Assembly (NCBI GenBank): GCA_046538375.1
Contig: JBKHJA010000003.1
Coordinates: 1 to 54,328 of the forward strand
From: Candidatus Aminicenantes bacterium
GTDB taxonomy: Bacteria; Acidobacteriota; Aminicenantia; Aminicenantales; Aminicenantaceae
Reading direction: 5' to 3'
Length of the DNA stretch: 54,328 nucleotides
The notes under the pieces are model-generated. The model made no database searches, was not told where the DNA came from, and worked only from the letters and a program-made list of their open reading frames with translations. The translations under genes and the position numbers were made by a program. How positions within the stretch are numbered: position 1 is the first letter of the stretch; each line of letters begins with the position of its first letter. Shown one piece after another: positions 5,759 to 32,083 of the stretch.

Positions 5759-6730
5759 ATGATTCTGGTATTCATAGAAATCAGAGAAGGAGAAGTGAAA
5801 AAGTCTTCTTTAGAGGCGGTCTCTGAAGCAAAGAGAAGAGCGGATGAGATGGGCACCGAGGTAGCGGCCGTACTGGTGGGTCACAAATTGGAAGATTATG
5901 CCCAGAAGGTTTTCCCTTACGGGGCAGCCAAGAGCTATGTGCTGGAGAACTCTCTCTTAACTCGGTATACACCTGAAGGATTTGCTCTGGCCCTCTCCAG
6001 TTTGGTGGAGGAGCTCAACCCAGAAGTCATTTTCTTTTCAGCAACCGCTATGGGAAGGGATTTGGCTCCCAGGCTGGCGGCTAAGCTGGGAGTGAGCCTT
6101 GCATCGGACTGCACCAAGACAGCAGCCAGAGGCGGGAAATTGGAGGTTGTTCGTCCCATTTTCGCAGGCAAAGCTTTTTTAAGCTTGAGCCTCCGTTCCT
6201 CTCCCCAAATAGCCTCTCTCAGGCCCAATGTCTTCCCTCTTTTAGACCCTTCAGATAATGAGGGAGAGGTTATCCGCAAAGAAATAGTCATCGATGAGAA
6301 GCAGGTCAAGTCCCAGGTCATAGAAATATTAAGGGAAGAGGGAGCAGAGATGGATGTCACTGAAGCAGAGATTGTTATCTCTGGCGGAAGGGGGATGAAG
6401 GGACCAGAGAATTTCGACCTGCTGAGAGAACTTTCCTCACTCCTTCCCCATTCGGCCATAGGAGCTTCTCGTTCGGCTGTGGATGCAAACTGGATAGACC
6501 ATCAGCATCAAGTAGGGCAAACCGGGAAAACAGTCTCTCCCAATCTGTATATGGCCTTCGGGATATCAGGTGCCATTCAACATCTGGCCGGGATGTCTTC
6601 TTCAAAATACATCGTGGCTGTCAACAAGGATCCAGAAGCACCTATTTTCAAATTGGCTGATTTCGGTGTGGTGGGAGACCTGTTCCAGGTGATCCCTCAT
6701 TTGAAGGAAGAGTTAAAAAAGATGAAATAA
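5759..6730 (+). CDS. etfA: Electron transfer flavoprotein alpha subunit
   Basis: SGGRG, GASR, QVGQTGK, GISGAIQHLAGM, NKDPEAPIF. Confidence 0.96.
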   Translation: MILVFIEIREGEVKKSSLEAVSEAKRRADEMGTEVAAVLVGHKLEDYAQKVFPYGAAKSYVLENSLLTRYTPEGFALALSSLVEELNPEVIFFSATAMGRDLAPRLAAKLGVSLASDCTKTAARGGKLEVVRPIFAGKAFLSLSLRSSPQIASLRPNVFPLLDPSDNEGEVIRKEIVIDEKQVKSQVIEILREEGAEMDVTEAEIVISGGRGMKGPENFDLLRELSSLLPHSAIGASRSAVDANWIDHQHQVGQTGKTVSPNLYMAFGISGAIQHLAGMSSSKYIVAVNKDPEAPIFKLADFGVVGDLFQVIPHLKEELKKMK

Positions 6731-6778
6731 GCCTTTCCTCTAGGCCGCAGTTTAATCCCTATCAGCGTTCGGATGTTT

Positions 6779-8410
6779 TCAGTAAGGTTCTAGAATATCC
6801 AAAAGCACTCTGTTTTTCTCTGAACGGCTTTCTCCTACACTGGTGACATAAATAGCCGGTTCATCCACCACTGGACATTTGGTCTCACATATCCCACAGC
6901 CGATGCAGATTTCTGTGTCCACAACCGGTGAAGCCGGAGTTGTTATGGTTCCATCCGGCCGTTTGATTTCTGTTTTTACCAGCTTGATGGCTTTTGGAGA
7001 GGTGGGACAGTGCTCCTCACACACGATACAAGGAGTGCCCATAACATAAGGAAGGCAGCGGTTCTTATTCACCCACGCCGTGCCGATGGTTACCTTGGTC
7101 TTCTCTCCCACCGTAAGTTCGTCAATAGCTCCGGTGGGGCAGACTTGAGAGCAAAGAGAACAGTAATATTCACAATAGCCGATTTTGGGGACCAGCACCG
7201 GTGTCCATAAGCCTTCAGGGCCTGCTTCCCAGAGTGCTGGCTGGAGAGCATTGGTGGGGCAGACCTTCATGCATTCCCCGCAGCGGACGCATTTCTGCAG
7301 AAACTTCTCTTCAGGGAGAGCACCGGGGGGACGAATCAGTTTGGGGGAGGCGCGGTTGGAGGCCGGAGAGAAGCGAAAAAAAGGAACAGCGAGGGTGCCC
7401 AGGATGGAAGTAAAGATGAGTTTCCTCCTGGAGAGATTCACCTCGGGCAGGGGTTCTGAAGCAGATTTTGCCGGAAATTGGATGGCGCTGGTGGGACAGA
7501 TGGCACTGCAGGTGTAACAATAATCGCATTCTGAGCTTTTCCATTCTTCATCTGGAAAGGGGTGGGCCTCGGTTTGACAGTGAATATTGCACAGGTCGCA
7601 TTCTATGCATTTTTGGGGATCTATCCGAAGCTTGAACACATTCCATCTTGAAACCAATCCCAGAAATGCTCCCAACGGACAAAGATAGCGGCACCAGAAT
7701 CTTTCTCTGGCCAGGTTGAGAAGGACCAAGCCAGCAAAGACAAGCCCGATGAAGAATCCTTGAACAAAGGTGGCGTTGAGAGCCAGATTTTGGATGAATT
7801 GAACCAAACTGTCTCCCAGGGAGTAAACCTTGATCTGGTAAAGAAGATCGAGGAAGACCGAGGAGAGGTAGCTCAGCACTGGGAGAAGGCTTACCGTAAA
7901 AGAACGATAGAGAAGGGAGAGGGGGTCAAGGATGCCCACCAGATTCAGGGTGAAAATCGAGCTAACCAACAAGAATATCAGCAGATAATATTTCCAGGAT
8001 AAAGGCCCTGGGGATTTCTTCTGGGGGGATAGGAGTTTAGTTTTTTTGAAGAGGAAAGAGAAGAACTGATGGATGGATCCAAGGGGACAGACCCATCCGC
8101 ACACTACCCGGCCTAACACCAAGGTGAAGAGGATGGTCAGCGCGGAAAATACGAAAGTAAGGAAAACCGTCCTGGCAGCCAGAAGGGTAGCCACAGCCAG
8201 GAGAGGGTCGAAATGGAAAAAAATTTCTACCTGACCGATGTAATCTTCTCCTGGAAATCGGGTGTTCAGTAAAAGGTAAAAAAACAGAGAGAAAAAAATG
8301 GTTTGGCTGAGGATTCGGAGAGCCTGAATGATGCGGTATTTTCTAGATCGTTCTCTCTTCAATATGGAGTTTCTCCAGGTTGATTTCTCCGAACCCTCTT
8401 TGATGGGCAA
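6779..8410 (-). CDS. Membrane polyferredoxin (NapH/MauN-like membrane part fused to NapG/MauM-like ferredoxin)
   Basis: TM segments with CGWVCPLG and WCRYLCPLG; multiple CxxCxxCxxxCP; IRPPGALPE...CVRCGECMKVCP; start uncertain. Confidence 0.85.
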   Translation of the reverse strand: MPIKEGSEKSTWRNSILKRERSRKYRIIQALRILSQTIFFSLFFYLLLNTRFPGEDYIGQVEIFFHFDPLLAVATLLAARTVFLTFVFSALTILFTLVLGRVVCGWVCPLGSIHQFFSFLFKKTKLLSPQKKSPGPLSWKYYLLIFLLVSSIFTLNLVGILDPLSLLYRSFTVSLLPVLSYLSSVFLDLLYQIKVYSLGDSLVQFIQNLALNATFVQGFFIGLVFAGLVLLNLARERFWCRYLCPLGAFLGLVSRWNVFKLRIDPQKCIECDLCNIHCQTEAHPFPDEEWKSSECDYCYTCSAICPTSAIQFPAKSASEPLPEVNLSRRKLIFTSILGTLAVPFFRFSPASNRASPKLIRPPGALPEEKFLQKCVRCGECMKVCPTNALQPALWEAGPEGLWTPVLVPKIGYCEYYCSLCSQVCPTGAIDELTVGEKTKVTIGTAWVNKNRCLPYVMGTPCIVCEEHCPTSPKAIKLVKTEIKRPDGTITTPASPVVDTEICIGCGICETKCPVVDEPAIYVTSVGESRSEKNRVLLDILEPY

Positions 8411-16600: not shown

Positions 16601-17155
16601 AAGCGGCTGGTTTCTCATTCCATAAATCAGTTGGATGACGAGAAAGATTTTGACAGCGAAATAAGAGTGGCCGGGGTCATTTCCTCTTTAAAACCCCTTA
16701 AGACCAAAAAAGAAGAAAGAATGGCCACTTTCATCCTAGAAGACCTCAGCGGTCGGATAGAGGTGGTGGTTTTTCCCGACAGTTATAAAAGGCATTATGA
16801 ATACTTGAGCGAAGATCTGATGGTATGGGTGAAGGGAAAATTCCTGGGAGAAGGCGAAAGTCGAAGAATTCATCTTATCCACCTCATGCCCCTTGAAGAG
16901 GCTTTCCGTGAGCAGGCCAAGAGAATGGTCCTGAGGATTTTTCTCCCCGGGATCGAGGAGTCGATCTTTGATAACCTGAAGGCCATGCTGGACAAGAACC
17001 GAGGCCCCTGTCCAGTTATCTTTGAGCTGGAAACACCTCATTCCTACCGGATGGTGGTTCAGTCTGTGGATATCCAAGGGGTTTCTCCTTCAGAAGAGCT
17101 CACTAAGGATATAGAACGATTGTTAGGGGATGACTCAGTCTTTATTGAATACTGA
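13679..17155 (+). CDS. dnaE: DNA polymerase III alpha subunit
   Basis: PHP domain HLHNHS/TDHGN, GRGSAAGS, PDIDIDF, GFNKSHS, OB fold. Confidence 0.98.
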   Translation: MEPVFVHLHNHSEFSILDGALKIDSLIEAAWKSNMPALALTDHGNIFGAVNFFRRAEKKGIKPILGCELYVAPQSRFHKKAEKGKSVHFHLVVLVKNEKGYKNLCQLITKSYLEGFYYRPRIDKEILAQYGEGLVGLSGCIKGEISHFLLSGEEDKAERAALEYASIFSRGDFYLELQDHGLKEEKEANPLLVALGKRLGLPVVATNDCHYLHKSDAETQDILICIQTNKKVGDQDRIRFGTDQFYFKSSSEMMDLFKDVPEAVKNTAKIASQCHFKFPTSGHFLPQFKAPGGIPLSEYFDQVVKEGFEISVEKVLREEKEDRALTLQQYHQRLEKEMELVKEMGFEGYFLVVWDLIQKAKTEKIPVGPGRGSAAGSLLAYSLGITDLDPLEYNLLFERFLNPERISLPDIDIDFCGRRRDEVLHYVTQKYGRENVCQIITFGTMAARQAVRDVGRALEVPLPEVDRIAKMIPPFGPDATIGGAINNIPQLKQLRDKNTKIAHLLSIAQKLEGQVRHPSIHAAGIVIAPRPLVEFMPLYQSTRGEITTQFPMQDIEALGLLKMDLLGLRNLTVIQDTVELINRDSGKKIQLDDIPLDDQKTFDVFKAGNTDGVFQFESPGMKDLLRNFKPESFRDLIALNALYRPGPLKSGMTDEFIKRKNHPERISYEFAELEPILKETKGIIVYQEQVMQIATELAGFSLAEADILRKAMGKKETAMMKAQRQRFIQGAKKKGISASKASKIFDQIKYFAGYGFNKSHSAAYALLAYRTAYLKAHFPVYFLAALLTSEAERGATSQVVKYTTECKEMGIKVLPPDINESEFNFTVDHGHIRFGLSAVKNVGEGAVEALLKSRSSRGKFTSPFEIFQEINPKVVNRKVVESLIKAGAFDSLKWKRSQLFHMVDKMINYAHDIQKIKSSKQNLLFGRRELEPPPIPAEIKRMPEWDESLFLSYEKDALGFFITGHPLAQFGNLLKRLVSHSINQLDDEKDFDSEIRVAGVISSLKPLKTKKEERMATFILEDLSGRIEVVVFPDSYKRHYEYLSEDLMVWVKGKFLGEGESRRIHLIHLMPLEEAFREQAKRMVLRIFLPGIEESIFDNLKAMLDKNRGPCPVIFELETPHSYRMVVQSVDIQGVSPSEELTKDIERLLGDDSVFIEY

Positions 17156-17196
17156 AAGCTTCTGTTTAGCCTATTCTAAGATTTTCGAAAATTGAG

Positions 17197-17808
17197 ATGG
17201 CTTATAAAGTGATGGTGGCTCACAGCAGCCCGGTGATTCAGAAAGCAGCCCGGATGGCTTTCTCAAGTCCAGAATTTGAAATCTATGTTTTTGATGATGG
17301 GCAGGAAGTGCTCAATCAACTTGACAAGATCGATCCCCATGTCATCCTGCTGGGGCTTTCTCTTCCCCGCAGGGATGGTTATGAAATAAGTCGGTACCTG
17401 AAGGCTCAGGAACAGTTCAAAAAAACAGCTCTTTTTCTGCTGCAGGGAGTTTTCGAGCCTATGGACAGGAAAAAGAGCGCTGAACTCGAATATGATGATA
17501 TTATTCAACTCCCGTTCGATTCTCAAAGCTTGATCCATCTGGTAAAGACTCATGTCCAGAGAAAGAATGATCCTCAAACCCTTCCCGAAGAACCCACGCC
17601 AGGAGTTTTTTTTGATCCGGAACAGGAGGAAGAGCTTGAAGCCAGAATCAAGGCCGTAGTAAAAAAAGAAAGTTTGGAAGTGGAGAGGGAACTGGAAAAG
17701 AGAATCAAAACCCAGCTTCTGGCAGAGATGGAGTCCTTCATCATGGCCAAGCTGGAAGACATAAAAAAGAAACTAAAACTGAACAAAGAAAAGAAAAACG
17801 TGAACTAA
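17197..17808 (+). CDS. Atypical (pseudo-)receiver domain protein with helical C-terminus, RomR-like
   Basis: CheY-like pattern (DGQEVL...P.VILL.LSLP..DGYEI) lacking the Asp residues; Pro/Glu linker; charged helical tail; upstream of valS. Confidence 0.65.
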   Translation: MAYKVMVAHSSPVIQKAARMAFSSPEFEIYVFDDGQEVLNQLDKIDPHVILLGLSLPRRDGYEISRYLKAQEQFKKTALFLLQGVFEPMDRKKSAELEYDDIIQLPFDSQSLIHLVKTHVQRKNDPQTLPEEPTPGVFFDPEQEEELEARIKAVVKKESLEVERELEKRIKTQLLAEMESFIMAKLEDIKKKLKLNKEKKNVN

Positions 17809-17853
17809 ATTGGTAAAATAGGGATTCCTATTTATCAGATTGTGGAGTTCAGG

Positions 17854-20496
17854 ATGAAAAGACAACGTATTCTGGAAAAGGCCTATGATCCTAAACCGGT
17901 GGAGGGGAAGTGGTCCAAATTTTGGATTGATCAAGGGCTGTTTGTGGCTGAAGCGCCTTCGCCCAGAGAAAAATTTTCCATGGTTCTTCCCCCTCCTAAT
18001 GTGACAGGGTCCCTGCATATGGGACACGCCCTTTGCTTTACCCTCCCTGATATCATTGTTCGCTGGAGGCGGATGCAGGGATACAATGTTCTTTGGCTGC
18101 CAGGAACAGATCATGCCAGTATTGCTGTCCACAATGTGATGGAACAAAAGTTAGCACAGAGAGGACAGACCAGAGAGGAAATAGGAAGAGAGGAGTTTCT
18201 CAAAATGGCATGGGAATGGAAAGAAGAGTACGGAGGGATCATCACTCGTCAGTTGAAAAGGCTGGGAGCTTCACTGGATTGGACTAGAGAAAGGTTCACC
18301 ATGGATGAAAAATTTTCTCAAGCCGTCAGGAAAGTGTTTGTGGACCTTTACCATGAAGGGCTTATCTACAGAGATTATTATCTGGTTAATCGCTGTCCCC
18401 ACTGTGGAACAGTGCTTTCAGATATAGAGATTGAGCACAAAGAACGAAAAACCAGGCTTTATTACATAAAGTATCCCCTTTTGGACAGTAAAGAACACAT
18501 TGTGGTGGCCACCACCCGGCCCGAAACCATGTTAGGAGATACTGCAGTGGCTGTTCATCCCCATGATAAGCGGTACAAGAAGTTTCATGGGAAGAGATTT
18601 CTGCTGCCAATAGTGGAAAGAATTATCCCTGTTATCACAGACCAGAAGGTGGATATGGAATTTGGGACAGGGGCAGTGAAGGTGACTCCTGCCCATGATC
18701 CAGTGGATTTCCAGTTGGGGAAAGAGCATAATCTTCCGCAGGTGATTGTTATCGATGGCTCCGGTAAGATGACAGAAGAGGCGGGGGAAGAGTTCAAAGG
18801 TTTAGACAGGTTCGAGTGCCGCCAGAAAGTCCTCTCCCAGCTTGAAAAGAAGGGACTGCTGGTGAAAACAGAAGAGTACCAACATGCTGTGGGGCACTGT
18901 TACCGTTGTAAAACCATCATTGAGCCTTATCTTTCCTGGCAGTGGTTTGTTAAAATCAAGCCTTTGGCTGAAGAGGCCATCAAAGTGGTGGAAGAAGGGA
19001 AAATTCAGTTCGTGCCCCCTAATTGGGCTAAGACCTATTTCGAGTGGATGTACAATATCCACGACTGGTGCATTTCCCGTCAACTCTGGTGGGGGCACAG
19101 GATCCCTGCCTGGTATTGCCGGGATTGTTCTCAATTGATGGTGGCTATGGTAAAGCCAGAGAAATGCCAAAAATGCCAGAGCAGAAACCTCATCCAGGAC
19201 CAGGATGTTCTGGATACATGGTTTAGCTCTGCGCTGTGGCCTTTTGCCACCATGGGGTGGCCGGAGCAGACTGAAGATTTGAAAACTTTCTACCCCACTG
19301 ATCTGATGGCCACAGGATTTGATATCATCTTTTTCTGGGTGGCCCGGATGATCATGATGGGCCTCAAGTTTACGGGAGACATCCCCTTCCGTCATGTTTT
19401 CATCAACGGGCTGGTGAGGGATTTTAAAAGGAGAAAAATGAGTAAGTCAGAGGGGAATATTATCGATCCTCTGGAAATGATGGATAAATACGGCACAGAT
19501 GCCCTTAGGTTTACCCTGGCAGCTCTGGCCATTCCCGGCATGGATATTTCCCTTTCTGAGGAAAGAATGGCCGGCTATAGTGCCTTTGCCAACAAGATCT
19601 GGAATGCTTCCCGCTTTGTGCTGATGAACTTGGATGAGCAGCTCATGGAGATAAATGAGGAAGAAATGACTCTGGCTGACAGATGGATTCGAAGCAGATT
19701 GGCCAAAATCAGCCAACAGCTTAACCAGGCCTTGGAAGAATACAAGTTCTACGAGGCAGCAGACAGGATTTATCATTTTATCTGGCATGAATTCTGTGAC
19801 TGGTATATCGAGTTGGTGAAGCCTGCCCTGACAAAGGGAAATAAAACAAGCCAGGCTGTCCTGGTGGAAGGTTTAGACCAGATAATGAGACTGCTTCATC
19901 CTTTCATGCCCTTTATCACCGAAGAAATCTGGCAGCATCTTCCTTCCACTGGAAAGTCACTGGCCGGGGCTTCATTTCCTGTGGGCCAGGATGATCGCAT
20001 AGACGAGCAGGCAGAGAAGGCCATGAAGCGCCTTCAGGAAGTTATCGTGGGAGTAAGAACCATTAGGGCTGAAAACAGGATTACTCCTAAAAAGAAAATA
20101 GGGCTTTGGCTGAAAACAAAAAAGGAAGAGGATAGAAATCTCATCCAGGACTACCAGATATACGTCCAGAGTCTGGCCGGTGTTGGAGGTGTTCAGGTTT
20201 GGGATGAGTTTCCGACGGAAAAGAGGCTTTTGAAAGGCGTGGCCGGATTATGGGAAATTGCCATCCCTCTTAAAGAAGATATGTTCGATTTAGAGCAGGA
20301 GAAAAAGAGAGTGGAGAAGGAGCTGGCTAAGGCCGAGGAAGAAATCAGGAAAATAGAAAACAGAGTCCAGAATACACGGTTTCTCAAACAAGCTCCTCCA
20401 GCAGTCATCCGCAGGAACCAGGACAGATTGAATCACCTTCAGAGAAAAAAGGGAAAACTGCAGGAAAGCCTGGACCACATTCTCTCTCTTCAATAA
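17854..20496 (+). CDS. valS: Valine--tRNA ligase
   Basis: PPNVTGSLHMGH, TTRPET, DWCISRQLWWGH, KMSKS, C-terminal coiled coil; alternative GTG start 17842. Confidence 0.98.
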   Translation: MKRQRILEKAYDPKPVEGKWSKFWIDQGLFVAEAPSPREKFSMVLPPPNVTGSLHMGHALCFTLPDIIVRWRRMQGYNVLWLPGTDHASIAVHNVMEQKLAQRGQTREEIGREEFLKMAWEWKEEYGGIITRQLKRLGASLDWTRERFTMDEKFSQAVRKVFVDLYHEGLIYRDYYLVNRCPHCGTVLSDIEIEHKERKTRLYYIKYPLLDSKEHIVVATTRPETMLGDTAVAVHPHDKRYKKFHGKRFLLPIVERIIPVITDQKVDMEFGTGAVKVTPAHDPVDFQLGKEHNLPQVIVIDGSGKMTEEAGEEFKGLDRFECRQKVLSQLEKKGLLVKTEEYQHAVGHCYRCKTIIEPYLSWQWFVKIKPLAEEAIKVVEEGKIQFVPPNWAKTYFEWMYNIHDWCISRQLWWGHRIPAWYCRDCSQLMVAMVKPEKCQKCQSRNLIQDQDVLDTWFSSALWPFATMGWPEQTEDLKTFYPTDLMATGFDIIFFWVARMIMMGLKFTGDIPFRHVFINGLVRDFKRRKMSKSEGNIIDPLEMMDKYGTDALRFTLAALAIPGMDISLSEERMAGYSAFANKIWNASRFVLMNLDEQLMEINEEEMTLADRWIRSRLAKISQQLNQALEEYKFYEAADRIYHFIWHEFCDWYIELVKPALTKGNKTSQAVLVEGLDQIMRLLHPFMPFITEEIWQHLPSTGKSLAGASFPVGQDDRIDEQAEKAMKRLQEVIVGVRTIRAENRITPKKKIGLWLKTKKEEDRNLIQDYQIYVQSLAGVGGVQVWDEFPTEKRLLKGVAGLWEIAIPLKEDMFDLEQEKKRVEKELAKAEEEIRKIENRVQNTRFLKQAPPAVIRRNQDRLNHLQRKKGKLQESLDHILSLQ

Positions 20497-20536
20497 AAGA
20501 AGCGAAGGGATATTCTTTTCATTTTTTCTGGGTAAA

Positions 20537-21286
20537 GTGATGGAGATCGGGAAAAAAATTCGATGGGTACGGAGCTGTCTTTCTACCAATGATCTGGCCA
20601 AAAAAATGGCCAGGACAGGCGAAGAAGAAGGAACGGTGGTGGTGGCAGAGGAGCAGACTGAAGGAAGAGGAACGCGGGGAAGAAAGTGGTACTCACCAAA
20701 AAACAAAGGACTTTACACTTCAGTGATTCTCCGCCCTCCCACCCCTTCTGTATCGCTTCTTCCTGTAGTGGGGGGTTTGGCAGTGAAGGACGCGGTTTTC
20801 CATGCCCTGGGAGTGAGGCTCTGTTTAAAATGGCCAAACGACCTGATCGGGGAAGGCAGGAAGGTGGGGGGAATCCTGTGTGAGAGTGGATTTTTAGGAA
20901 ATCGCCTCCATTATGTTATCATGGGCATAGGACTGAACCTCAGTCATGAAAAAAAGGATTTTCCTCCAGAAATTCGCGGTCAGGCCATTTCTTTAAAGCT
21001 TATAAAGAAAGAGCCTATAAGGATGGATGAAATTCTTCCCAGCCTGTGGACTTCCCTGGAGCACTGGTACAGTCTTTTTCTAAAAGGAGAAGAAAAGAAA
21101 GTCATCAAGGCTTTCCAGGCCGGCTCAGTCCTGCCTCTGCACAGAAGAATAACTGTGCTTACCGACCAAGGGATATTTCGAGGTGTATTTCAAGGGATCG
21201 ACACTTCGGGGAATCTGATCCTGGAGGAAAACGGGAAGAAATTAAAGTTCTTTTCTGCTCAGATAGAAACCATCGAAAGTGCGTAA
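20537..21286 (+). CDS. birA: Biotin--acetyl-CoA-carboxylase ligase (no HTH)
   Basis: STND, QTEGRGTRGRKWYSP, KWPND, KVGGILCE. Confidence 0.93.
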   Translation: MMEIGKKIRWVRSCLSTNDLAKKMARTGEEEGTVVVAEEQTEGRGTRGRKWYSPKNKGLYTSVILRPPTPSVSLLPVVGGLAVKDAVFHALGVRLCLKWPNDLIGEGRKVGGILCESGFLGNRLHYVIMGIGLNLSHEKKDFPPEIRGQAISLKLIKKEPIRMDEILPSLWTSLEHWYSLFLKGEEKKVIKAFQAGSVLPLHRRITVLTDQGIFRGVFQGIDTSGNLILEENGKKLKFFSAQIETIESA

Positions 21287-21298
21287 AGGAGGGAGGGG

Positions 21299-22087
21299 AT
21301 GCTTTTAGCTGCGGATATAGGAAATACCAATATCGTTATCGGTATTTTTAGAGGCCGGAGTTTGATCAAGAGCTGGAAGATCAGAACGGAAAGAGAAAAA
21401 ACATGCGATGAATACGGAATCACCCTGTTGAACCTCTTTTCCTCAGCAGATTTAAAAAAACAAGAAATAAGATCTGTTATTTTCTCCAGCGTGGTTCCCC
21501 CGCTGACACCCGTTTTTCAACAGCTGTCCAGGGATCTGTTTGGAGTGAAGGCATTGGTGGTGGGCCCGGGATTGAAGACCGGAATGCCCATCCTCTACGA
21601 GAATCCTCTGGAAGTGGGTGCAGATCGGGTGGTGGCAGCAGTGGCTGCCTTTGCCAAATACGGAGGACCAGCCATCGTGGTTGATTTTGGAACAGCCACC
21701 ACCTTTGATGCTGTTTCGGAAAAAGGAGAATATTTGGGAGGAGCTATTGCTCCGGGAATTCAGATTGCAGCGGAGGCGCTTTATCTCAAGACAGCGAAAC
21801 TGCCTCGTATTGAGATAAGAAAGCCCCAGAAAGCCATCGGCCGAACCACAGTGAGCAGCATGCAGTCGGGTCTTTATTATGGTTATATTGGTCTTATTTC
21901 TCGTATCATAGAAGAGATGAGGAAGGAACTGGGAGAGAAGACCAAGGTCATCTCTACGGGAGGATTCGCAGCCGTGATCAGCCGGGATATTCAGTCTATT
22001 CAATTTGGTGAGCCCTATCTTGTGCTGGAAGGCCTCAGGATCATTTTTGACAGGAACCGGGAACAAGAAACTTCACAAGCGAGGTGA
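21299..22087 (+). CDS. coaX: Type III pantothenate kinase
   Basis: DIGNTN, GADR, VDFGTATT, GGAIAPG, TGG. Confidence 0.96.
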   Translation: MLLAADIGNTNIVIGIFRGRSLIKSWKIRTEREKTCDEYGITLLNLFSSADLKKQEIRSVIFSSVVPPLTPVFQQLSRDLFGVKALVVGPGLKTGMPILYENPLEVGADRVVAAVAAFAKYGGPAIVVDFGTATTFDAVSEKGEYLGGAIAPGIQIAAEALYLKTAKLPRIEIRKPQKAIGRTTVSSMQSGLYYGYIGLISRIIEEMRKELGEKTKVISTGGFAAVISRDIQSIQFGEPYLVLEGLRIIFDRNREQETSQAR

Positions 22088-22155
22088 GTGAATATCTTTG
22101 CCCTGGATTCACTTGCTGCTCCAGAGTGAAATCAGTCAGTAAAGCTAGGGAATAA

Positions 22156-22800
22156 GTGGACGAAAAAAAAATCGGAAAAAGAAATCGGTATTTTCAGACT
22201 GTTACCCGACATTTTATCAAACAGAGGGGAACGCCTTTTTTTCTTTCATCTCAGGAGCTTGATCTCATAGACCGTTGGGAAAAAAAGGGCATTCCCCTGC
22301 GAGTGGTCTTGGAGGGGATAAAACGATCGTTTGAAGATTCCAGAACCAAAAGGAGAAAAAGGGAAAAAATCTTTTCTCTTTTGTACTGCGATTTTCAGGT
22401 GTTAAAAGCTTTTGGGCAGTACAAAGAAAGAAGAGTGGGGAAAAGAGGCTTGATTTTCGAAGGAGAGGAAAAAAGGAAGAAAGCGAGGGCAGAAGTGGTG
22501 AGATTTTTAAGGAGACTTCCCTCTCCAGTAGGCTTTCTTGGAGACCTCTATTCTGAAGCCCAAGAGATGCTTTCCAAAAGGGAATGGGAAGAGGAAGAGT
22601 TAGAACAGCTGGAAGAGAGGATTGAGGAGCTTCTGTGGGAAGACGCTCCGCAGGAAATGAAAGAAAAAGTCAGAAAAGAAGTGATGAAGGAATATGAATA
22701 CCGGGATGAATATGAATTGGATTCCATGTTAAAGATAAGACTGGTGAAGTTTATGAGAGAGAGATACAAAATTCCCCATATTTCTCTGTTTTATTATTGA
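22156..22800 (+). CDS. Conserved-looking hypothetical protein (DnaD-like N-terminal helix pattern)
   Basis: Uninterrupted 214-aa ORF in operon orientation; LSSQELDLIDRWEKKGIPLRVVLEGI; stop overlaps rnr start. Confidence 0.7.
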   Translation: MDEKKIGKRNRYFQTVTRHFIKQRGTPFFLSSQELDLIDRWEKKGIPLRVVLEGIKRSFEDSRTKRRKREKIFSLLYCDFQVLKAFGQYKERRVGKRGLIFEGEEKRKKARAEVVRFLRRLPSPVGFLGDLYSEAQEMLSKREWEEEELEQLEERIEELLWEDAPQEMKEKVRKEVMKEYEYRDEYELDSMLKIRLVKFMRERYKIPHISLFYY

Positions 22801-24878
22801 GTCAAAGGATGGTTGACCGCATCATTTCTCTGTTGAAGAGGAAAAAAGGGGGGATGAGTTTTCAAAAATTAGCCAGTCAACTTCGTCTGTCTCCTCCACA
22901 AAAACAACGGTTAAAGAAGACCCTGCGGGAATTGGAGAGCCAGGGGATTGTTTTCAGGGTAAAACGCAGGTATTTTGTTCCCGCCTCTCCTCATCTGATA
23001 ACAGGGAGATTTATCCGTTCCCGGAAAGAATACGGATTTGTGGCTGTCCAGAAGAAACCGGGGGAGGACATTTTTATTCCCCCCGGCCGTTCCGGAGGAG
23101 CCATGCACGGGGATACGGTGGAAGTTCTTTATAAGAGGAGGGGTAAAAAAGGGAAGCCGGAGGGAAGGATTCTGCGGGTCCTGGAAAAAGGAAAAGAGAG
23201 GGTGATCGGCCAGTACCGGGAATACGGAGGGCAGCCCTATTTTCTCCCCCTGGATGCTCCCTTTTCTGAGGAACTGCCGGTGGTGGTGAGCAGGGAATTT
23301 TCCCCTGTTCCAGGCATGTTGGTGGAGGTGGAGAGAAAGACCATGGGTTTGACAGATATTCTGGGAATGCCGGATGAACCAGGGGTGGATACAGAAGCGG
23401 TCATGCGCAAATATGGATTACGGTCATCCTTTTCCCCTCAGTCACTCCAAGAAGCCCAGAGTATTCCTTTTCCTGTTTCCGAGCAGGCCAAAGAGGGAAG
23501 AGTGGATCATAGAAGTTGGCTCACTGTGACTATTGACGGCGAGGAGGCTCAGGATTTTGACGATGCGGTGAGTGTGAGGAAGCTCGGAAACGGCGGATTT
23601 TTGCTGGGAGTTCATATTGCTGATGTTTCCCATTATGTCCAGCCCGGAACCCACCTTGATGAGGAGGCTTTGGAGCGAGGGACCAGTGTTTACTTTCCAG
23701 ATCGGACGCTGGCCATGCTGCCCGAGAGGCTGTCTAATAAACTGTGCAGCCTAAGACCGGCGGAGGACAAGCTTGCTTTTTCAGTGATCCTGAAAATAGA
23801 CCCTGAAGGAAATGTGGTGGACAGAGTATTCCAGCCCTCTTTGATCAGGACCGAAGCAAGGATGACCTACCGGTCTGTTTATAAAATTTTTTTAGGGGAG
23901 GAAGAAGAGAGAGCCAGATTTTCAAAACTTGTCCCGGATTTGATGATAATGAGAGATCTGGCACGGCTTTTGAAAAGGAAAAGAAAGGAGGAGGGAAGCC
24001 TGGATTTCGACATCACGGAGCCGGAGCTCATCTACAGAGAGGGAAATATCGTTTCTGTTCTCCCCTTGCAGCGGAACGAGGCTCATCAGGTTATTGAAGA
24101 GTTCATGGTCGCTTCCAATGAGGCGGTAGCTTCCTATCTTGCTGAGAAAAGAGTCCCCCTTCTTTACAGGATCCATCCCCAACCAAGAGAAAGGGATTTG
24201 GCGAAGCTTCGCAAAATATTGCCTCACTTCGGCGTTTATCTGCCCGAAAAGAAAAAGATAGAATCCAAAGATATCCAGCATGCGGTGGAACAGGCTGAAG
24301 GCAAACCTTATGAAAAGTTTGTTAACCTTCAGATTCTCAAAAGCCTCAGCCTGGCTGTCTATTCGGAGGAGAATAAAGGTCATTTCGGTCTGGCCAAAAA
24401 GATATACACTCATTTCACCTCTCCCATCCGGCGCTATCCTGATTTGGTGGTTCACCGCATCCTGAAACAGGTCCTGAAACAGGAAAAGCCACCATGGTCC
24501 TCTCTTTCTTCTGTAGCCCACCGATGTTCTGAACAGGAGCAGAGGGCAGATGAGGCAGAAAGGGAGCTTTTGGAATGGAAAATCTATCAGTTTCTCAAAC
24601 AAAAGCTGGGAGAGGAGATGGAAGGCACGGTCATTGATATTTCTAAGGCAGGTTTGGAGGTGGAGTTGGATGATTATTTAGTGAGCGGAACAGTCTTTTT
24701 TTCTGATTTGGCAGATGATCATTATGTGAAGAGGTCAGAAAAGACTGTGGTGGGAAGAAGAACGGGAAGGAAATTGGAAATGGGAGACAGGATAAAAGGG
24801 ATTTTGGCTTCAGTTGATCCTGTCTTCAGGAGATTGACCCTGACTTTGACTTCGCATAAGGGAGGAAGACGCAGGTGA
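22797..24878 (+). CDS. rnr: Ribonuclease R
   Basis: N-terminal wHTH, cold-shock domains, TIDGEEAQDFDDA, HFTSPIRRYPDL, C-terminal S1. Confidence 0.95.
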   Translation: MSQRMVDRIISLLKRKKGGMSFQKLASQLRLSPPQKQRLKKTLRELESQGIVFRVKRRYFVPASPHLITGRFIRSRKEYGFVAVQKKPGEDIFIPPGRSGGAMHGDTVEVLYKRRGKKGKPEGRILRVLEKGKERVIGQYREYGGQPYFLPLDAPFSEELPVVVSREFSPVPGMLVEVERKTMGLTDILGMPDEPGVDTEAVMRKYGLRSSFSPQSLQEAQSIPFPVSEQAKEGRVDHRSWLTVTIDGEEAQDFDDAVSVRKLGNGGFLLGVHIADVSHYVQPGTHLDEEALERGTSVYFPDRTLAMLPERLSNKLCSLRPAEDKLAFSVILKIDPEGNVVDRVFQPSLIRTEARMTYRSVYKIFLGEEEERARFSKLVPDLMIMRDLARLLKRKRKEEGSLDFDITEPELIYREGNIVSVLPLQRNEAHQVIEEFMVASNEAVASYLAEKRVPLLYRIHPQPRERDLAKLRKILPHFGVYLPEKKKIESKDIQHAVEQAEGKPYEKFVNLQILKSLSLAVYSEENKGHFGLAKKIYTHFTSPIRRYPDLVVHRILKQVLKQEKPPWSSLSSVAHRCSEQEQRADEAERELLEWKIYQFLKQKLGEEMEGTVIDISKAGLEVELDDYLVSGTVFFSDLADDHYVKRSEKTVVGRRTGRKLEMGDRIKGILASVDPVFRRLTLTLTSHKGGRRR

Positions 24879-25960
24879 TGACTTCCTGTTTCGACGCTGT
24901 GGTTGACTTCTCTCCTCAGCAGGAGAAAAAGTCATTCCAGGCCTTGATGGTGGTCAAAAATACAAGGATGCCTTGTTCTCTTTCTTTTTATCCTCAGGTT
25001 CAAAAGGGAAACCAGCCTGACTTTTTTATCCGTGTCCATACCCGCAATCTTCTGAACTTAAAATGGGATGATAGATTCGAAGTCAGAAAGTCCAGAAAGA
25101 ATGAATCCATGGGGCAAGGGAGAGTGCTTAATCCCGATTCAGGAAAAGTCACACCTAAGAAAATCAATAAAAGAATAGCTTATCTCCAGAAACTCAACGG
25201 AAATGAGAAAGAGATGCTGCTGGCCCTTCTCCAGCATACGGGGACAAGAGGGTTAAAAGAAAGAGAGATAGCCGAATTTTCTCCTTTGAGCAAACAGAAA
25301 GCCCTCCGTCTCAGCCAGGAGCTGGAGCAGGAGGGAAGAGTGAGAATTCTCTCTTTTTCTCCTCTTTTTCTTCTTTCCAGAGAAAGCCTTGATTTCCTGG
25401 GTGAGAAAATTCTTGCCGGCCTTTCCCGTTTTCATGAGAAACATCCTGGGGAAGAAGGGATGGCTTTGGAAAGGATAAAAAGAGGATTCAGATTGGACCA
25501 TAAGATTCTCTCTCTCGCCATTAACCGTCTGCTCAGGGAGGATAAAATTAAGAAAGTCCATGGAAGGATATCTCTGGGTGGTTTCAGAAGGGATCTGTTT
25601 CCTGAAGAGGAAAAAATTTTGCAGAAACTGGAAATGATGTGCTACCAGGGAGAATTCCGTTCTGTTTCATTTGACCAGTTGTGCCAGAAGTTTCATCTTT
25701 CCCCTCAGAGATTGGACATGCTGCTTTCTTTTTTAATGGAGAGAAGGAAAATAGTCCAGGGAAAAAATGGTTTTATTATTCATTCCCGATGGTTGGATGA
25801 AATCATTTCCAGGATCCGCTCAACCGGGAAAAAAGAAATCTCTGTTTCCGATTTTAAAAAAATGACTGGCCTCAGCCGTAAATATGCGATTCCTCTGCTG
25901 GAATTGTTGGATCAGATGGGAGTGACCCGCAGAAGAGGGGCGGGGAGGGAAATTTTATGA
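24875..25960 (+). CDS. SelB-like protein comprising only domain III and the winged-helix (SECIS-binding) domains
   Basis: DRFEVR...GQGRVLNP (domain III end), FHEKHPGEEGM, C-terminal SDFKKMTGLSRKYAIPLLELLD..GVTRR; no P-loop. Confidence 0.8.
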   Translation: MMTSCFDAVVDFSPQQEKKSFQALMVVKNTRMPCSLSFYPQVQKGNQPDFFIRVHTRNLLNLKWDDRFEVRKSRKNESMGQGRVLNPDSGKVTPKKINKRIAYLQKLNGNEKEMLLALLQHTGTRGLKEREIAEFSPLSKQKALRLSQELEQEGRVRILSFSPLFLLSRESLDFLGEKILAGLSRFHEKHPGEEGMALERIKRGFRLDHKILSLAINRLLREDKIKKVHGRISLGGFRRDLFPEEEKILQKLEMMCYQGEFRSVSFDQLCQKFHLSPQRLDMLLSFLMERRKIVQGKNGFIIHSRWLDEIISRIRSTGKKEISVSDFKKMTGLSRKYAIPLLELLDQMGVTRRRGAGREIL

Positions 25961-25968
25961 GGATTTTA

Positions 25969-28047
25969 TTATTTCTCTTTCTCCTCCTCCTCTTTCTTCT
26001 GTGAACCTTTTTTATCTAGGGCGGATTTAAGCTTTTCCGCAAATATGCCAAACACAGGTTCTTCTGAAACATAATGTTTATATTCTTTTTTCTTTTTGGA
26101 GGGAGGCGCTGTTTTCTCTTCTTCCTCTGTTTTTTTCTCTTTGGCTTTGACGGCGAAAAGGGCTTCCTGTTCTGATTCTTCAATCTCGATTTTTTCTTCG
26201 ATGAACCTCTTCTCTCCTTTCCTCATCCGAAGAGTCTTCTCCCTTTCTGGCCTTACTTTTTCTCTTTTTTTCTTGGGCTCCTTTTCTTTTTTTGGTGGAG
26301 GCGGCTGTTCTTCTGGAGAGGGCTCTTCTATTTCCACTTTTTGGGCCCTGGCTGGCGCTTCTGCTCTGATTTCTTCTCTTTTTTCTTGGAGGGGAGGGGG
26401 AGAGATTTCTTCAGGTGGAGCTTCAGGGGGAACTTCTTCTGCTTCTTCTTGGGGTGGAATTTCAGGTGGGGCTTCGGCTTCTTTTTCTTCTTCTTCGATT
26501 CTTATTTTTTCTTGATACAAGAATATTCCCTTCTTTTTTTCAGATTTTTTGAATTCAGGGGAGTGGGTGAGAATCTTTTCCACATCTTCTTGGGTGGTTT
26601 GTCTTAACAGGTCCACCAGATGGTAAGCCCTCAAGTAATGAAGAGAAGAGTTGTCTCTTCCTAAGCCAAAATTCTTATAGATGAGGATCAGAAGTTCTCT
26701 CAGGTCCAGCCCGTTTCTCTGGTTATACAAGGAGAAAAGCTTGGTCAATGTTTCTTTTTGGAGATGAATTATCTTGTTGGGAAGAGAAAAGGTAAACACT
26801 TCCTCGCCGGAGTCTGTGAATTTGTCTTCTTTAGGCTTGTAGTTGATCTTGGCTACGGACAGTTTCTTCTTTGATTTCTTAAGCCAGAAATTGAAGTGCA
26901 AGGCATTCTTCTTCTCCAGAGATAAGCTTGCTCCCTGAGGGACGTTATTGCTTTGGTAAAATTCCTTTAGACCGATAAATAGATGGGCGGAGGGATAATA
27001 ATAAACGGTGTGATCCTTTTCTGATTCCACATCAGTGAAAACATATTCTCTGGAGATGGAGAAGTCCTTTTTGTGGCTTTTGGGGACTTTAACTCCGCCA
27101 GAAAGAATTTCTCTCCAGGTCAGATATATTTTTAAAGGATAATCTCGGGAAGAAGTCTTTTTTCCGGTTTCCCTTTCTAGAGAGGGCAGGTTAGCTCTGG
27201 GGGCTGACAGCGGCAGACCTTTGAGGAAAGAATTGAGTATTTGCTTTAAGGTCCATTTTCCCCAGTTTTGGGGAGAGGCATACACGAAAATTTTCTTGTA
27301 TTTCTTCTCCAGGATATGGTTTAAACTGACACAGTAGAGAGGGAATTGTTCTTGGTCTGGCTTCAACCTGAAGAACTTGCTGACCAATTCTTCGGTGGGG
27401 ATTGATTGTTTTTTTTCCTGGAGATAATTTTCAATGTCTTTTATTTTCTTTTCACCGATTTTAATCTTCTTTTCCTTGAGCTGCCAGTAGTCATCCCAAT
27501 GGAAGAACTGAGATGATTTAGAGAGAGCGGATTTCAGGTTCTTCTCCAATTTTTTCATATCCCTCTCTGTCATGGGGAGATGTTCATGCCGGGGATCATC
27601 TTCTTTTTTCAGCACTTGCGGCTCTTCCCCTTTTTTCTCCAGATTGCTGGGAAGGAGAACCTGGGTCTTGGTCTTCTTCATGTAATCGATGTGTTTCCTG
27701 AAAATCCCTCCTCCTGAATAGTCCACTTCCAGCATCTCGCAGTTGAAACTCTGGTAGTCGAATTTGTTCACCACCCTGAGGACCACAGCATCATTGAAAT
27801 GTTCAGCTCCCTTGCTGCTCACAGTCAGTGATTCATCATATTCTTTGTAAATATAATCTCCGATTTCATACCTGCAGTATGGATCGTAAACTTTGACTTG
27901 TTGAGCGAGCTGGGAGGAGGTCTTCTTGTAAACCAGCTTTTTGGTCAATTCCTGGAGAGAAAGGGGGGCGGCGCTTTGGGAAAGTTCTTTCTCTACGAAA
28001 GAGAGGTCTTCTTGTTCGATTTTTATGTTTTCTTGTTCTTTAGCCAT
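25969..28047 (-). CDS. Hypothetical protein, 692 aa, with low-complexity Glu/Pro/Lys tail
   Basis: Long uninterrupted ORF overlapping the OTC stop by 8 nt. Confidence 0.8.
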   Translation of the reverse strand: MAKEQENIKIEQEDLSFVEKELSQSAAPLSLQELTKKLVYKKTSSQLAQQVKVYDPYCRYEIGDYIYKEYDESLTVSSKGAEHFNDAVVLRVVNKFDYQSFNCEMLEVDYSGGGIFRKHIDYMKKTKTQVLLPSNLEKKGEEPQVLKKEDDPRHEHLPMTERDMKKLEKNLKSALSKSSQFFHWDDYWQLKEKKIKIGEKKIKDIENYLQEKKQSIPTEELVSKFFRLKPDQEQFPLYCVSLNHILEKKYKKIFVYASPQNWGKWTLKQILNSFLKGLPLSAPRANLPSLERETGKKTSSRDYPLKIYLTWREILSGGVKVPKSHKKDFSISREYVFTDVESEKDHTVYYYPSAHLFIGLKEFYQSNNVPQGASLSLEKKNALHFNFWLKKSKKKLSVAKINYKPKEDKFTDSGEEVFTFSLPNKIIHLQKETLTKLFSLYNQRNGLDLRELLILIYKNFGLGRDNSSLHYLRAYHLVDLLRQTTQEDVEKILTHSPEFKKSEKKKGIFLYQEKIRIEEEEKEAEAPPEIPPQEEAEEVPPEAPPEEISPPPLQEKREEIRAEAPARAQKVEIEEPSPEEQPPPPKKEKEPKKKREKVRPEREKTLRMRKGEKRFIEEKIEIEESEQEALFAVKAKEKKTEEEEKTAPPSKKKKEYKHYVSEEPVFGIFAEKLKSALDKKGSQKKEEEEKEK

Positions 28048-28972
28048 TTTTTTTCTTCTTACCTAACAATAATAACATAATAATTTTCTGTACGTGAAGT
28101 CTATTTTCGGCTTGGTCATAAACAATGGATTGGGCAGAATCGATGACTTCGCCTGTGACTTCTTCTCCTCTATGAGCCGGGAGGCAGTGCATAAAAACGG
28201 CATCCGCTTTGGCTTTGGCCATCACTTCCCTGTTGACTTGAAAGGGAGCGAATACAGCGGCCCTTTCTTCTCGTTCTTCTTCTTGACCCATGGAGGCCCA
28301 TACATCAGTGTAAACAGCATCCGCCTCCTGAGCAGCTTGGTGAGGATCTTTGAACAGATGAACACGCCATCCTGTTTCTTTTCCGTCTTGTTCTGCTTGT
28401 TTAACAATCTCTGGACTGGGCTCATAGCCATCAGGAGTGGCCACGCTCATGGCGCTTCCCGCTTTTGCGGCAGCAAACATGAGGCTGTGACACAGATTAT
28501 TGCCGTCTCCGATATAAGCCAATTTGAGATTGGCCAGGCCTCCTTTTTTTTCCCTTAGAGTGAAAAAATCTCCCATGGCCTGACAGGGATGGAGAAGGTC
28601 GGTTAAGGCGTTAATCACAGGGATGCTGGCAGCACCAGCCAGGTCCATCACAATCTGATGGCCGAAGGTTCTGATCATGATGGCATCCACCCAGCGTTCC
28701 AGGTTTTTGCCCACATCACAGACATTTTCTCTTTTTCCCAGTTGGATATCAGAAGGGCTCAAGTAGATGGCTTCTCCTCCCAGCTCCAGCATGCCCACTT
28801 CAAAGGTCATCCTGGTGCGGAGAGATGGCTTTTCAAATATCATGGCTAATATTCTGTTTTTTAGACTGCTCCGGTGGCTGCGGGGATGAGCTTTGATTTC
28901 CTCAGTCAGGTCTAATATTTGGTTGAATTCATAAAGAGAAAGATCATGAATGGAGATAAAGTCTTCCATCAT
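28040..28972 (-). CDS. argF: Ornithine carbamoyltransferase
   Basis: FEKPSLRTR, HPCQ, GDGNN, TDVWASMG, HCLP, QAENR; context suggests a catabolic (ArcB) role. Confidence 0.95.
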   Translation of the reverse strand: MMEDFISIHDLSLYEFNQILDLTEEIKAHPRSHRSSLKNRILAMIFEKPSLRTRMTFEVGMLELGGEAIYLSPSDIQLGKRENVCDVGKNLERWVDAIMIRTFGHQIVMDLAGAASIPVINALTDLLHPCQAMGDFFTLREKKGGLANLKLAYIGDGNNLCHSLMFAAAKAGSAMSVATPDGYEPSPEIVKQAEQDGKETGWRVHLFKDPHQAAQEADAVYTDVWASMGQEEEREERAAVFAPFQVNREVMAKAKADAVFMHCLPAHRGEEVTGEVIDSAQSIVYDQAENRLHVQKIIMLLLLGKKKKNG

Positions 28973-32011: not shown

Positions 32012-32083
32012 AGGCGCGTAGCTCAGTGGTAGAGTGCTTCCTTGACGCGGAAGAGGTCGAGGGTTCGATACCCTCCGCGCCTA
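32012..32083 (+). tRNA. tRNA-Val (GAC), CCA not encoded
   Basis: Acceptor stem AGGCGCG/CGCGCCT, D-arm TAGCTCAGTGGTAGAG, anticodon arm CTTCC-TTGACGC-GGAAG, T-arm GAGGG-TTCGATA-CCCTC. Confidence 0.97.

Follow-up and report, generated by a model that had tools for sequence, protein, structure and literature searches.

selBC, a stand-alone paralogue of the SelB C-terminal half encoded next to RNase R in Aminicenantes, is a candidate RNA-hairpin binder

In this work we analyzed a gene, here called selBC, that is located at 24875..25960 (+ strand, stop codon included) of a 54,328-nucleotide stretch of DNA from a Candidatus Aminicenantes bacterium (GenBank assembly GCA_046538375.1, contig JBKHJA010000003.1, positions 1 to 54,328 of the forward strand), this whole stretch being referred to hereafter as the window. 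The list of open reading frames (ORFs), searches of Pfam and NCBIfam, and the predicted fold identify selBC as a stand-alone paralogue of the C-terminal part of SelB, and the gene directly follows rnr, which encodes RNase R. Sequence comparisons and a structural model suggest, with a probability that we put at about 0.5, that selBC is an autonomous RNA-hairpin binder, independent of selenocysteine (Sec) and co-expressed with RNase R. It is an old SelB paralogue devoid of GTPase, which retained the hairpin module formed by winged helices 3 and 4 (WH3/4) and lost the parts that carry tRNA-Sec and GTP, and which was probably put to a new use as a free-standing RNA-binding protein.

The winged-helix arm of SelB is the textbook reader of an mRNA hairpin on the ribosome, and here it survives alone in every sampled Aminicenantales genome, whether or not the Sec machinery is present. 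This stand-alone arm is under purifying selection, which indicates that the module has a second use besides selenocysteine. If the more specific and more tentative version of our reading, outlined below, is correct, selBC would represent a new class of bacterial post-transcriptional regulator, class-wide in one bacterial class and derived from the selenocysteine machinery. This soluble-looking 361-aa protein offers a handle in the search for a new RNA ligand.

Domain architecture of selBC and comparison with SelB

The selBC protein carries SelB-wing_3 at residues 319-358 (E = 5e-17; 61.6 bits, cut-off 23.2) and SelB-wing_2 at residues 181-234 (E = 2e-8; 34.5 bits, cut-off 22.3). Both Pfam cut-offs are passed, and the protein fits the description "SelB C-terminal domain-containing protein" (PF09106 plus PF09107, approximately 360 aa, without a G domain). 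The same Pfam search gave no match to GTP_EFTU (PF00009), and the GTP-binding domain 1 with its P-loop is absent, as had been claimed in a previous reading of this DNA made from its letters and ORFs (hereafter the sequence-only reading). Consistent with this, the SelB equivalog model TIGR00475 aligned to selBC only over positions 313-577 of 581, with 62.1 bits and below its cut-off of 242.25. Neither the sequence alignments nor the AlphaFold2 model include domain 2, which forms the aminoacyl/Sec pocket in SelB.

An alignment of 48 family members (alignment A1) was the basis of the profile searches and of the AlphaFold2 model (mean predicted local distance difference test score 90.9; predicted template modelling score 0.75). 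The A1 profile matched WH1-4 of Moorella SelB (1lva) with an E-value of 9e-38 over positions 112-361, and its positions 62-358 paired with residues 317-578 of the full-length SelB of Aquifex (4zu9). In the model, residues 2-86 form a barrel of six strands, residues 94-107 a helix, and residues 111-360 a series of four winged-helix units. When this model was compared with the PDB using Foldseek, ranks 1-11 were all SelB; the full-length SelB chains 5lzb_z and 4zu9 aligned with selBC over approximately 365 columns, and 1wsu, which contains SelB WH3/4 together with RNA of the selenocysteine insertion sequence (SECIS), fitted at a root mean square deviation of 2.2 Å and a template modelling score of 0.85 by target. 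The N-terminal barrel also resembles domain 3 of many EF-Tu structures (1eft and others) over approximately 92 columns. The profile and structure searches that the sequence-only reading had proposed thus match the protein to SelB domains, and its claim that the ORF begins in SelB domain III is borne out by the barrel.

On the DNA, where all of these features lie on the + strand, the six-strand beta-barrel homologous to domain 3 of SelB/EF-Tu corresponds to 24878..25132 (secondary structure by DSSP, Foldseek, and the 4zu9 alignment). It is followed by a helix that resembles the spacer linking SelB's N- and C-terminal parts and connects the barrel to WH1 in the model (25154..25195). WH1 and WH2 (residues 111-234, 25205..25576) are delimited by the 1lva profile, the model, and Foldseek, and WH3 and WH4, which in SelB form the module that binds the SECIS hairpin, span residues 243-360 (25601..25954), based on the 1wsu fit and the conserved columns. 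The domain scheme of Aquifex SelB, as given in the part of the source available to us, places domain 3 at 266-342, the spacer at 343-361, and the four winged-helix domains at 362-582 (PMC4605307). As modelled, selBC is made up of domain 3, the spacer, and WH1-4, and is in effect a SelB cut at the boundary between domains 2 and 3. It shares all of these units, in the same order, with bacterial SelB (TIGR00475; 4ZU9, 5LZB-D, 1LVA, 1WSU, 2UWM, and 2PLY), and differs from it in having neither the GTPase domain nor domain 2, and hence neither the tRNA-Sec nor the Sec pocket.

We then set 17 members of the family against 44 full-length SelBs, of which 12 came from Aminicenantales and 8 from other Acidobacteriota, the other 24 being metagenomic representatives, and took as conserved those SelB columns with 70% or more agreement among the 44. 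In WH4, all 12 conserved columns hold the same residue in the selBC family: K328, SRKYA at 334-338 (S334, R335, K336, Y337, A338), LE at 342-343 (L342, E343), D346, T351, R353, and G355 (nt 25856-25939, + strand). This is the pattern SRKYA..LE..D....T.R.G, and the WH4 motif that the sequence-only reading described as well preserved, GLSRKYAIPLLELLDQMGVTRR, corresponds to residues 332-353. By contrast, the signature of domain 3 is mostly gone, as 5 of its 29 SelB-conserved columns are kept and 16 are lost in the family. WH1 has just two conserved columns among the SelBs, and the selBC family has a motif of its own there, E151..G154...ILSFSPL (residues 151-164, nt 25325-25366, + strand; alignment counts), whose conservation reaches 80% or more within the family and stays under 40% among the 44 SelBs. 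With a pI of 10.07, the family median being 9.6, the protein is basic, and the net charge of WH4, from +1 to +6, is positive in all 48 aligned members.

In SelB, WH3/4 hold the SECIS hairpin and domain 3 contacts the T and extra arms of tRNA-Sec, according to the available part of the source (PMC4605307). The contrast between WH4 and domain 3 suggests that the binding of hairpin RNA was kept and the link to tRNA and GTPase was lost; the hairpin-binding surface appears to be constrained as in SelB, and the constraints on the tRNA side appear to be gone. From this pattern and from the modelled fold we infer that selBC binds RNA.

Occurrence, age, and independence from the selenocysteine machinery

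An ortholog of selBC was found in 41/41 sampled Aminicenantales genomes, belonging to nine families, with 36-63% identity and no internal stops. On the other hand, selA was over its cut-off in 18 of these 41 genomes and full-length selB in the same 18, and in these genomes the full SelB and selBC share 18-26% identity. The remaining 23 selBC-bearing genomes have neither selA nor full-length selB over cut-off, including the single-contig G039 and G014 (95% complete). One further case is G035 (83% complete), in which a weak SelB-like match at a contig end may represent a partial SelB, so that this genome may be Sec-positive. In none of the 31 loci examined in the order does selBC lie next to sel genes. 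selBC is therefore kept in Aminicenantes regardless of selenocysteine use.

The genome from which the window derives (156 contigs, 87.5% complete) gave the same picture. We found in it no selA, and no selD above cut-off, the best match being an AIR-synthase-type relative with 79 bits (cut-off 125). The genome also yielded no N-terminal half or further piece of SelB, the search returning only other translational GTPases in frames of 710-719 aa. Finally, no tRNA-Sec was found, as the three best matches to Rfam RF01852 are tRNA-Leu and tRNA-Ser according to ARAGORN. The searches for selD and tRNA-Sec covered this genome only.

These data bear on a role of selBC in selenocysteine metabolism, either by competing with SelB for SECIS or by regulating sel genes through SECIS-like elements. 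Isolated C-terminal fragments of SelB bind SECIS, the selAB leader of E. coli contains a SECIS-like element to which SelB also binds, and selBC has the same WH3/4 fold and WH4 signature as SelB. However, the 23 genomes with selBC and without selA and full-length selB over cut-off, together with the absence of sel genes beside it in all 31 loci examined, make such a role very unlikely. Of the suggestion in the sequence-only reading that selBC is a SECIS-binding regulator, the binding of a hairpin RNA thus stays plausible, given the fully kept WH4 signature, and the SECIS or selenocysteine part is unlikely.

We also considered that selBC could be one half of a split SelB, as the sequence-only reading had put forward, or the decaying remnant of a recently truncated selB. 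selBC does end exactly at the domain 2/3 boundary, and truncation of SelB by deletion does occur. Nevertheless, this explanation is already contradicted by the data and is hardly credible: in the window's own genome no SelB with only a G domain, no selA, no selD over cut-off, and no tRNA-Sec were found, 18 genomes have both a full SelB and the distant selBC, and the occurrence of selBC in 41/41 genomes does not follow that of selA and selB in 18/41.

A quick maximum-likelihood tree was built (LG+G4 model; support by the Shimodaira-Hasegawa-like approximate likelihood ratio test, SH-aLRT, only; midpoint root for drawing). Its 63 rows comprise 17 of the 48 sequences in A1, P0177 as a long form of the family, a truncated SelB from another lineage (P0193, see below), 20 SelBs from the genomes, and 24 of the full-length representatives returned by the library search. 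The 18 family rows fall on one side of a branch with an SH-aLRT support of 98, apart from all 44 SelBs, and within the other side the 12 Aminicenantales SelBs group together as a clade supported at 100. The ratio of nonsynonymous to synonymous substitution rates (dN/dS) was 0.14 for selBC and 0.17 for rnr in the closest pair (G000/G024, 63% identity), values to be read with the saturation or near saturation of dS in all pairs, 13 of 20 pairs giving no computable dS. Together with the absence of internal stops, the separate clade and the dN/dS of approximately 0.14 show that selBC is an old paralogue under purifying selection and was not produced by recent deletion from a full-length selB at this locus, an origin that the sequence-only reading had named as a possible objection.

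A recent deletion did occur, independently and in an unrelated lineage, in P0193, a protein of 374-376 aa with the barrel and WH1-4, encoded at 6001-7131 (+) of locus L060 in a 1.5-Mb metagenome-assembled genome (MAG) labelled uncultured Thermodesulfatator. No full SelB was found in this MAG. Its domain content is the same as that of selBC, but P0193 nests inside the SelB clade in the tree, does not adjoin rnr, and has homologs in frames of 638-684 aa in 40/40 genomes of relatives, with identity of up to 54%, indicating a recent deletion derivative. The gene order in L060 is an AIR-synthase-type gene, glyQ, glyS, and then the truncated SelB, with an RNB gene of the RNase II type 4 kb further downstream.

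Beyond this case, we examined 20 short distant matches from the library. At least 5 belong, as fragments, to clusters with other members of 502-636 aa, and a further 10 are known solely from contigs of 1-3.5 kb. The apparently genuine stand-alone SelB C-terminal proteins among the 20 are P0193 (recent truncation), P0205 (from a lineage with the gene pair pgi-selBC), P0177 (the long form of the selBC family), and perhaps P0268. In the ESM Atlas, clusters without GTP_EFTU from other phyla could not be told from fragments. The long form (467-470 aa, family f10) is encoded at L051 5962-7374 (-), L052 177-1580 (-), and L053 5311-6717 (+); its approximately 130 extra N-terminal residues have no Pfam match and may be what is left of domain 2.

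Of 201 sampled genomes from the phylum, searched with a match threshold of E 1e-5 or better, 167 gave selBC matches, and outside the class nearly all of them were in frames of approximately 620-830 aa, which correspond to full-length SelB. Three genomes flagged as unpublished (G089, G192, and G064) are counted here, each with a row of the full-length type only, and no claim made here depends on them. In other orders of the class, 13 of the 14 sampled genomes had a match, with frames of 326-497 aa where a frame was listed. In the search of the whole library, an E-value of 1e-30 or better was reached by 53 representatives, namely the selBC family, and the next matches were full-length SelBs with 25-30% identity. 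The names on the homolog records place the family in Aminicenantes (Aminicenantales).

The NCBI name "SelB C-terminal domain-containing protein", given to proteins of Aminicenantes MAGs, covers the same family (P0034, P0101, P0107, P0111, and P0289) and is a domain label only, and our literature search returned no publication describing a bacterial SelB C-terminal protein that stands alone. The label used by JGI/IMG for these proteins, "selenocysteine-specific elongation factor", is misleading, since it would wrongly mark Sec-negative genomes as selenocysteine-using. Two other arrangements resemble that of selBC, namely eukaryotic SBP2 with eEFSec, to which the sequence-only reading had likened it, and archaeal aSelBL. 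SBP2 is not known to be related to selBC in fold, and neither SBP2/eEFSec nor aSelBL is linked to RNase R. These systems have the GTPase and RNA-binding parts of Sec decoding, or SelB homologs, apart from the Sec trait. According to the available part of the source, aSelBL retains the GTPase half, the reverse of selBC (PMC3037878).

Link to rnr and proposed function

The rnr gene (22797..24878, + strand) belongs to the same operon, upstream of selBC, and encodes a 693-aa RNase R (TIGR02063, 660 bits, cut-off 598) with RNB, CSD2, OB_RNB, and S1 domains. The two genes meet at the sequence GTGATG (24875..24880, +), in which the rnr stop codon TGA (24876-24878) overlaps the start of selBC, in agreement with the sequence-only reading. 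The selBC frame has 361 aa if it starts at GTG 24875, with an overlap of 4 nt (GTGA), or 360 aa if it starts at ATG 24878, with an overlap of 1 nt (TGATG); the latter matches P0001, the 360-aa database record encoded by the window itself. The Shine-Dalgarno site reported previously as GGAGG was read directly as GGGAGG at 24860..24865 (+), within the 3' end of rnr and 9 nt 5' of the GTG.

The adjacency of rnr and selBC, whose conservation the sequence-only reading had proposed to check, is conserved within the order. rnr lies directly 5' of selBC in 29 of the 31 Aminicenantales loci (10/11 and 19/20 in two sets), and the selBC start overlaps the rnr stop in 19 of these 29, the others having gaps of 30 nt or less (eight loci) or of 137 and 241 nt (two loci). 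The junction is not an assembly artefact at about 24870, a concern raised at the outset, because this junction recurs in 29 relatives whose genomes were assembled independently. In addition, a Logan contig of run X2, which may be the source sample, covers 24539-26400 with 0 differences. The search for sequencing runs gave 4, all from one study and none of them listed as holding RNA. The Shine-Dalgarno site was rejected as a conserved feature, since a GGAG/GAGG core lies 4-20 nt 5' of the selBC start in only 14 of the 31 orthologous loci. It is the conserved start/stop overlap, and not this site, that suggests termination-reinitiation.

Such linkage raises the possibility that selBC is a dedicated adaptor, which binds RNase R and brings it to particular stem-loops or keeps it off them, as in a third suggestion of the sequence-only reading. 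The frequent adjacency and stop/start overlap in the order, the retention of rnr within this gene string in three further families of the class, and the retained hairpin-binding signature of WH4 are all in line with it. However, the phosphoglucose isomerase gene pgi (PF00342) separates rnr from selBC in 6/6 loci of those families (L048-L053; f10, f11, and f13, from other orders), which have the tightly packed order rnr-pgi-selBC, and a divergent stand-alone lineage of the P0205 type (L097 and L098, metagenome contigs) has pgi-selBC with no rnr nearby. A weak homolog from f12 (L054) has neither rnr nor pgi beside it. In G010 and G018, rnr is missing from the locus and up214, the ORF that otherwise precedes rnr, is directly followed by an intact selBC. 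RNase R over cut-off was found in 0/5 of the genomes concerned (G010, G018, and three f12 genomes with the weak homolog only; 88-97% complete), and selBC or the weak homolog persists in all five, so that loss of selBC together with RNase R was not observed. The link to rnr is therefore not obligatory, because pgi is interposed elsewhere, pgi-selBC occurs without rnr, and selBC occurs in genomes without RNase R over cut-off. An obligate adaptor would be expected to vanish with its partner, and the RNase R-negative genomes that keep selBC therefore weaken the adaptor explanation, which we regard as possible in principle and unlikely.

Two observations on these neighbours can be added. A short pgi (402-457 aa, PF00342) is directly 5' of selBC in four lineages, with rnr further upstream in three of them, and the window's own genome yielded no more than a distant PGI-like stretch, within a 793-aa frame on contig C99. 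Furthermore, G018 encodes, away from the selBC locus, a divergent 701-aa RNB-domain protein (L091 643-2748, +; PF00773, 1.7e-42) that falls well short of the cut-off for RNase R.

A comparable gene pair is rnr-smpB of Bacillus, in which the gene for an RNA-binding protein lies directly 3' of rnr. SmpB, whose known RNA partner is tmRNA, is not known to be related to selBC by sequence or by fold.

Returning to the Sec-independent hairpin binder that we favor, WH4 would clamp an RNA stem-loop as SelB clamps SECIS, and the translation or 3'-to-5' decay of the bound RNA would be altered by selBC. By analogy with the C-terminal arm of SelB, the protein could be docked on the shoulder of the 30S subunit near the mRNA entrance. 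It would be translated from the last gene of the housekeeping operon valS-birA-coaX-up214-rnr-selBC, through termination-reinitiation at the rnr stop codon. In SelB, the C-terminal arm contacts 16S helix 16 and S4, as stated in the available part of a preprint (bioRxiv 10.1101/2025.02.04.636165). A more specific version, which we put forward tentatively and hold to be possible at best, is that the mRNA/ribosome arm of SelB was exapted as a free factor that reads a specific stem-loop, belonging to an mRNA or to a stable RNA, at or near the ribosomal mRNA entrance and either stalls or recodes translation or passes the RNA to RNase R.

Several results weigh against a hairpin-binding function. No RNA target for selBC was found. 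The Rfam scan of the whole window returned a tRNA only. The predicted RNA fold of the junction region (24760-24960) has a z-score of -1.09, and 32 of 200 shuffles fold equally well; there is therefore no evidence for a regulatory hairpin at this site. The scan for promoters and terminators over 17000-28500 gave 12 promoter sites (10.7 expected) and 17 terminator sites (15.8 expected), which is chance level. The neighbours of the gene vary (rnr, pgi, up214), and the operon yields no firm functional clue. The twelve WH4 residues are putative RNA contacts, proposed from conservation across SelBs and the fold match to 1wsu. Lastly, winged helices bind DNA more often than RNA, there are sub-threshold matches to DNA-binding families of the winged helix-turn-helix (wHTH) type, and precomputed annotations of PF05158, PF12802, and PF02082 appear on 3 of the 120 listed homologs.

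The last of these points agree with another explanation, in which selBC is a DNA-binding winged-helix transcription regulator merely descended from SelB. Tandem wHTH domains mostly bind DNA, and the protein is basic. The weak matches are to DUF2582 (0.0026) and, on an ortholog, to HTH_69 and MCM4_WHD, and Foldseek also returned chains of TFIIIC tauB and of RNA polymerase III subunits (E 5e-5 to 1e-3). Yet the most conserved stretch of selBC is the SelB-wide WH4 signature, and SelB WH3/4 binds RNA, as described in the available part of the source (PMC4605307). In addition, the strong matches of sequence and fold are all to SelB, no DNA-binding wHTH family matched over threshold, and there is no conserved intergenic operator region adjoining selBC, because the genes overlap. 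A DNA-binding role is thus improbable in our view.

Neighbouring genes in the window

Across the order, selBC is part of the syntenic string birA-coaX-up214-rnr-selBC, which is followed by a convergent gene for a 692-aa protein and by argF. The ORF up214 (22156..22800, + strand; ORF list and synteny) encodes a conserved protein of 214 aa with no Pfam or NCBIfam match and has a stop that overlaps the start of rnr. Across Aminicenantales it is syntenic with 32-56% identity, and it directly precedes selBC in two loci without rnr (L019 and L044).

The tRNA gene that constitutes the sole Rfam match of the window is located at 32012-32083 (+). The 692-aa ORF convergent to selBC lies at 25969-28047 (-) and has no Pfam or NCBIfam match; its first approximately 512 residues are 47-71% conserved over the order and class, and its C-terminal third is a low-complexity tail rich in Lys, Glu, and Pro.

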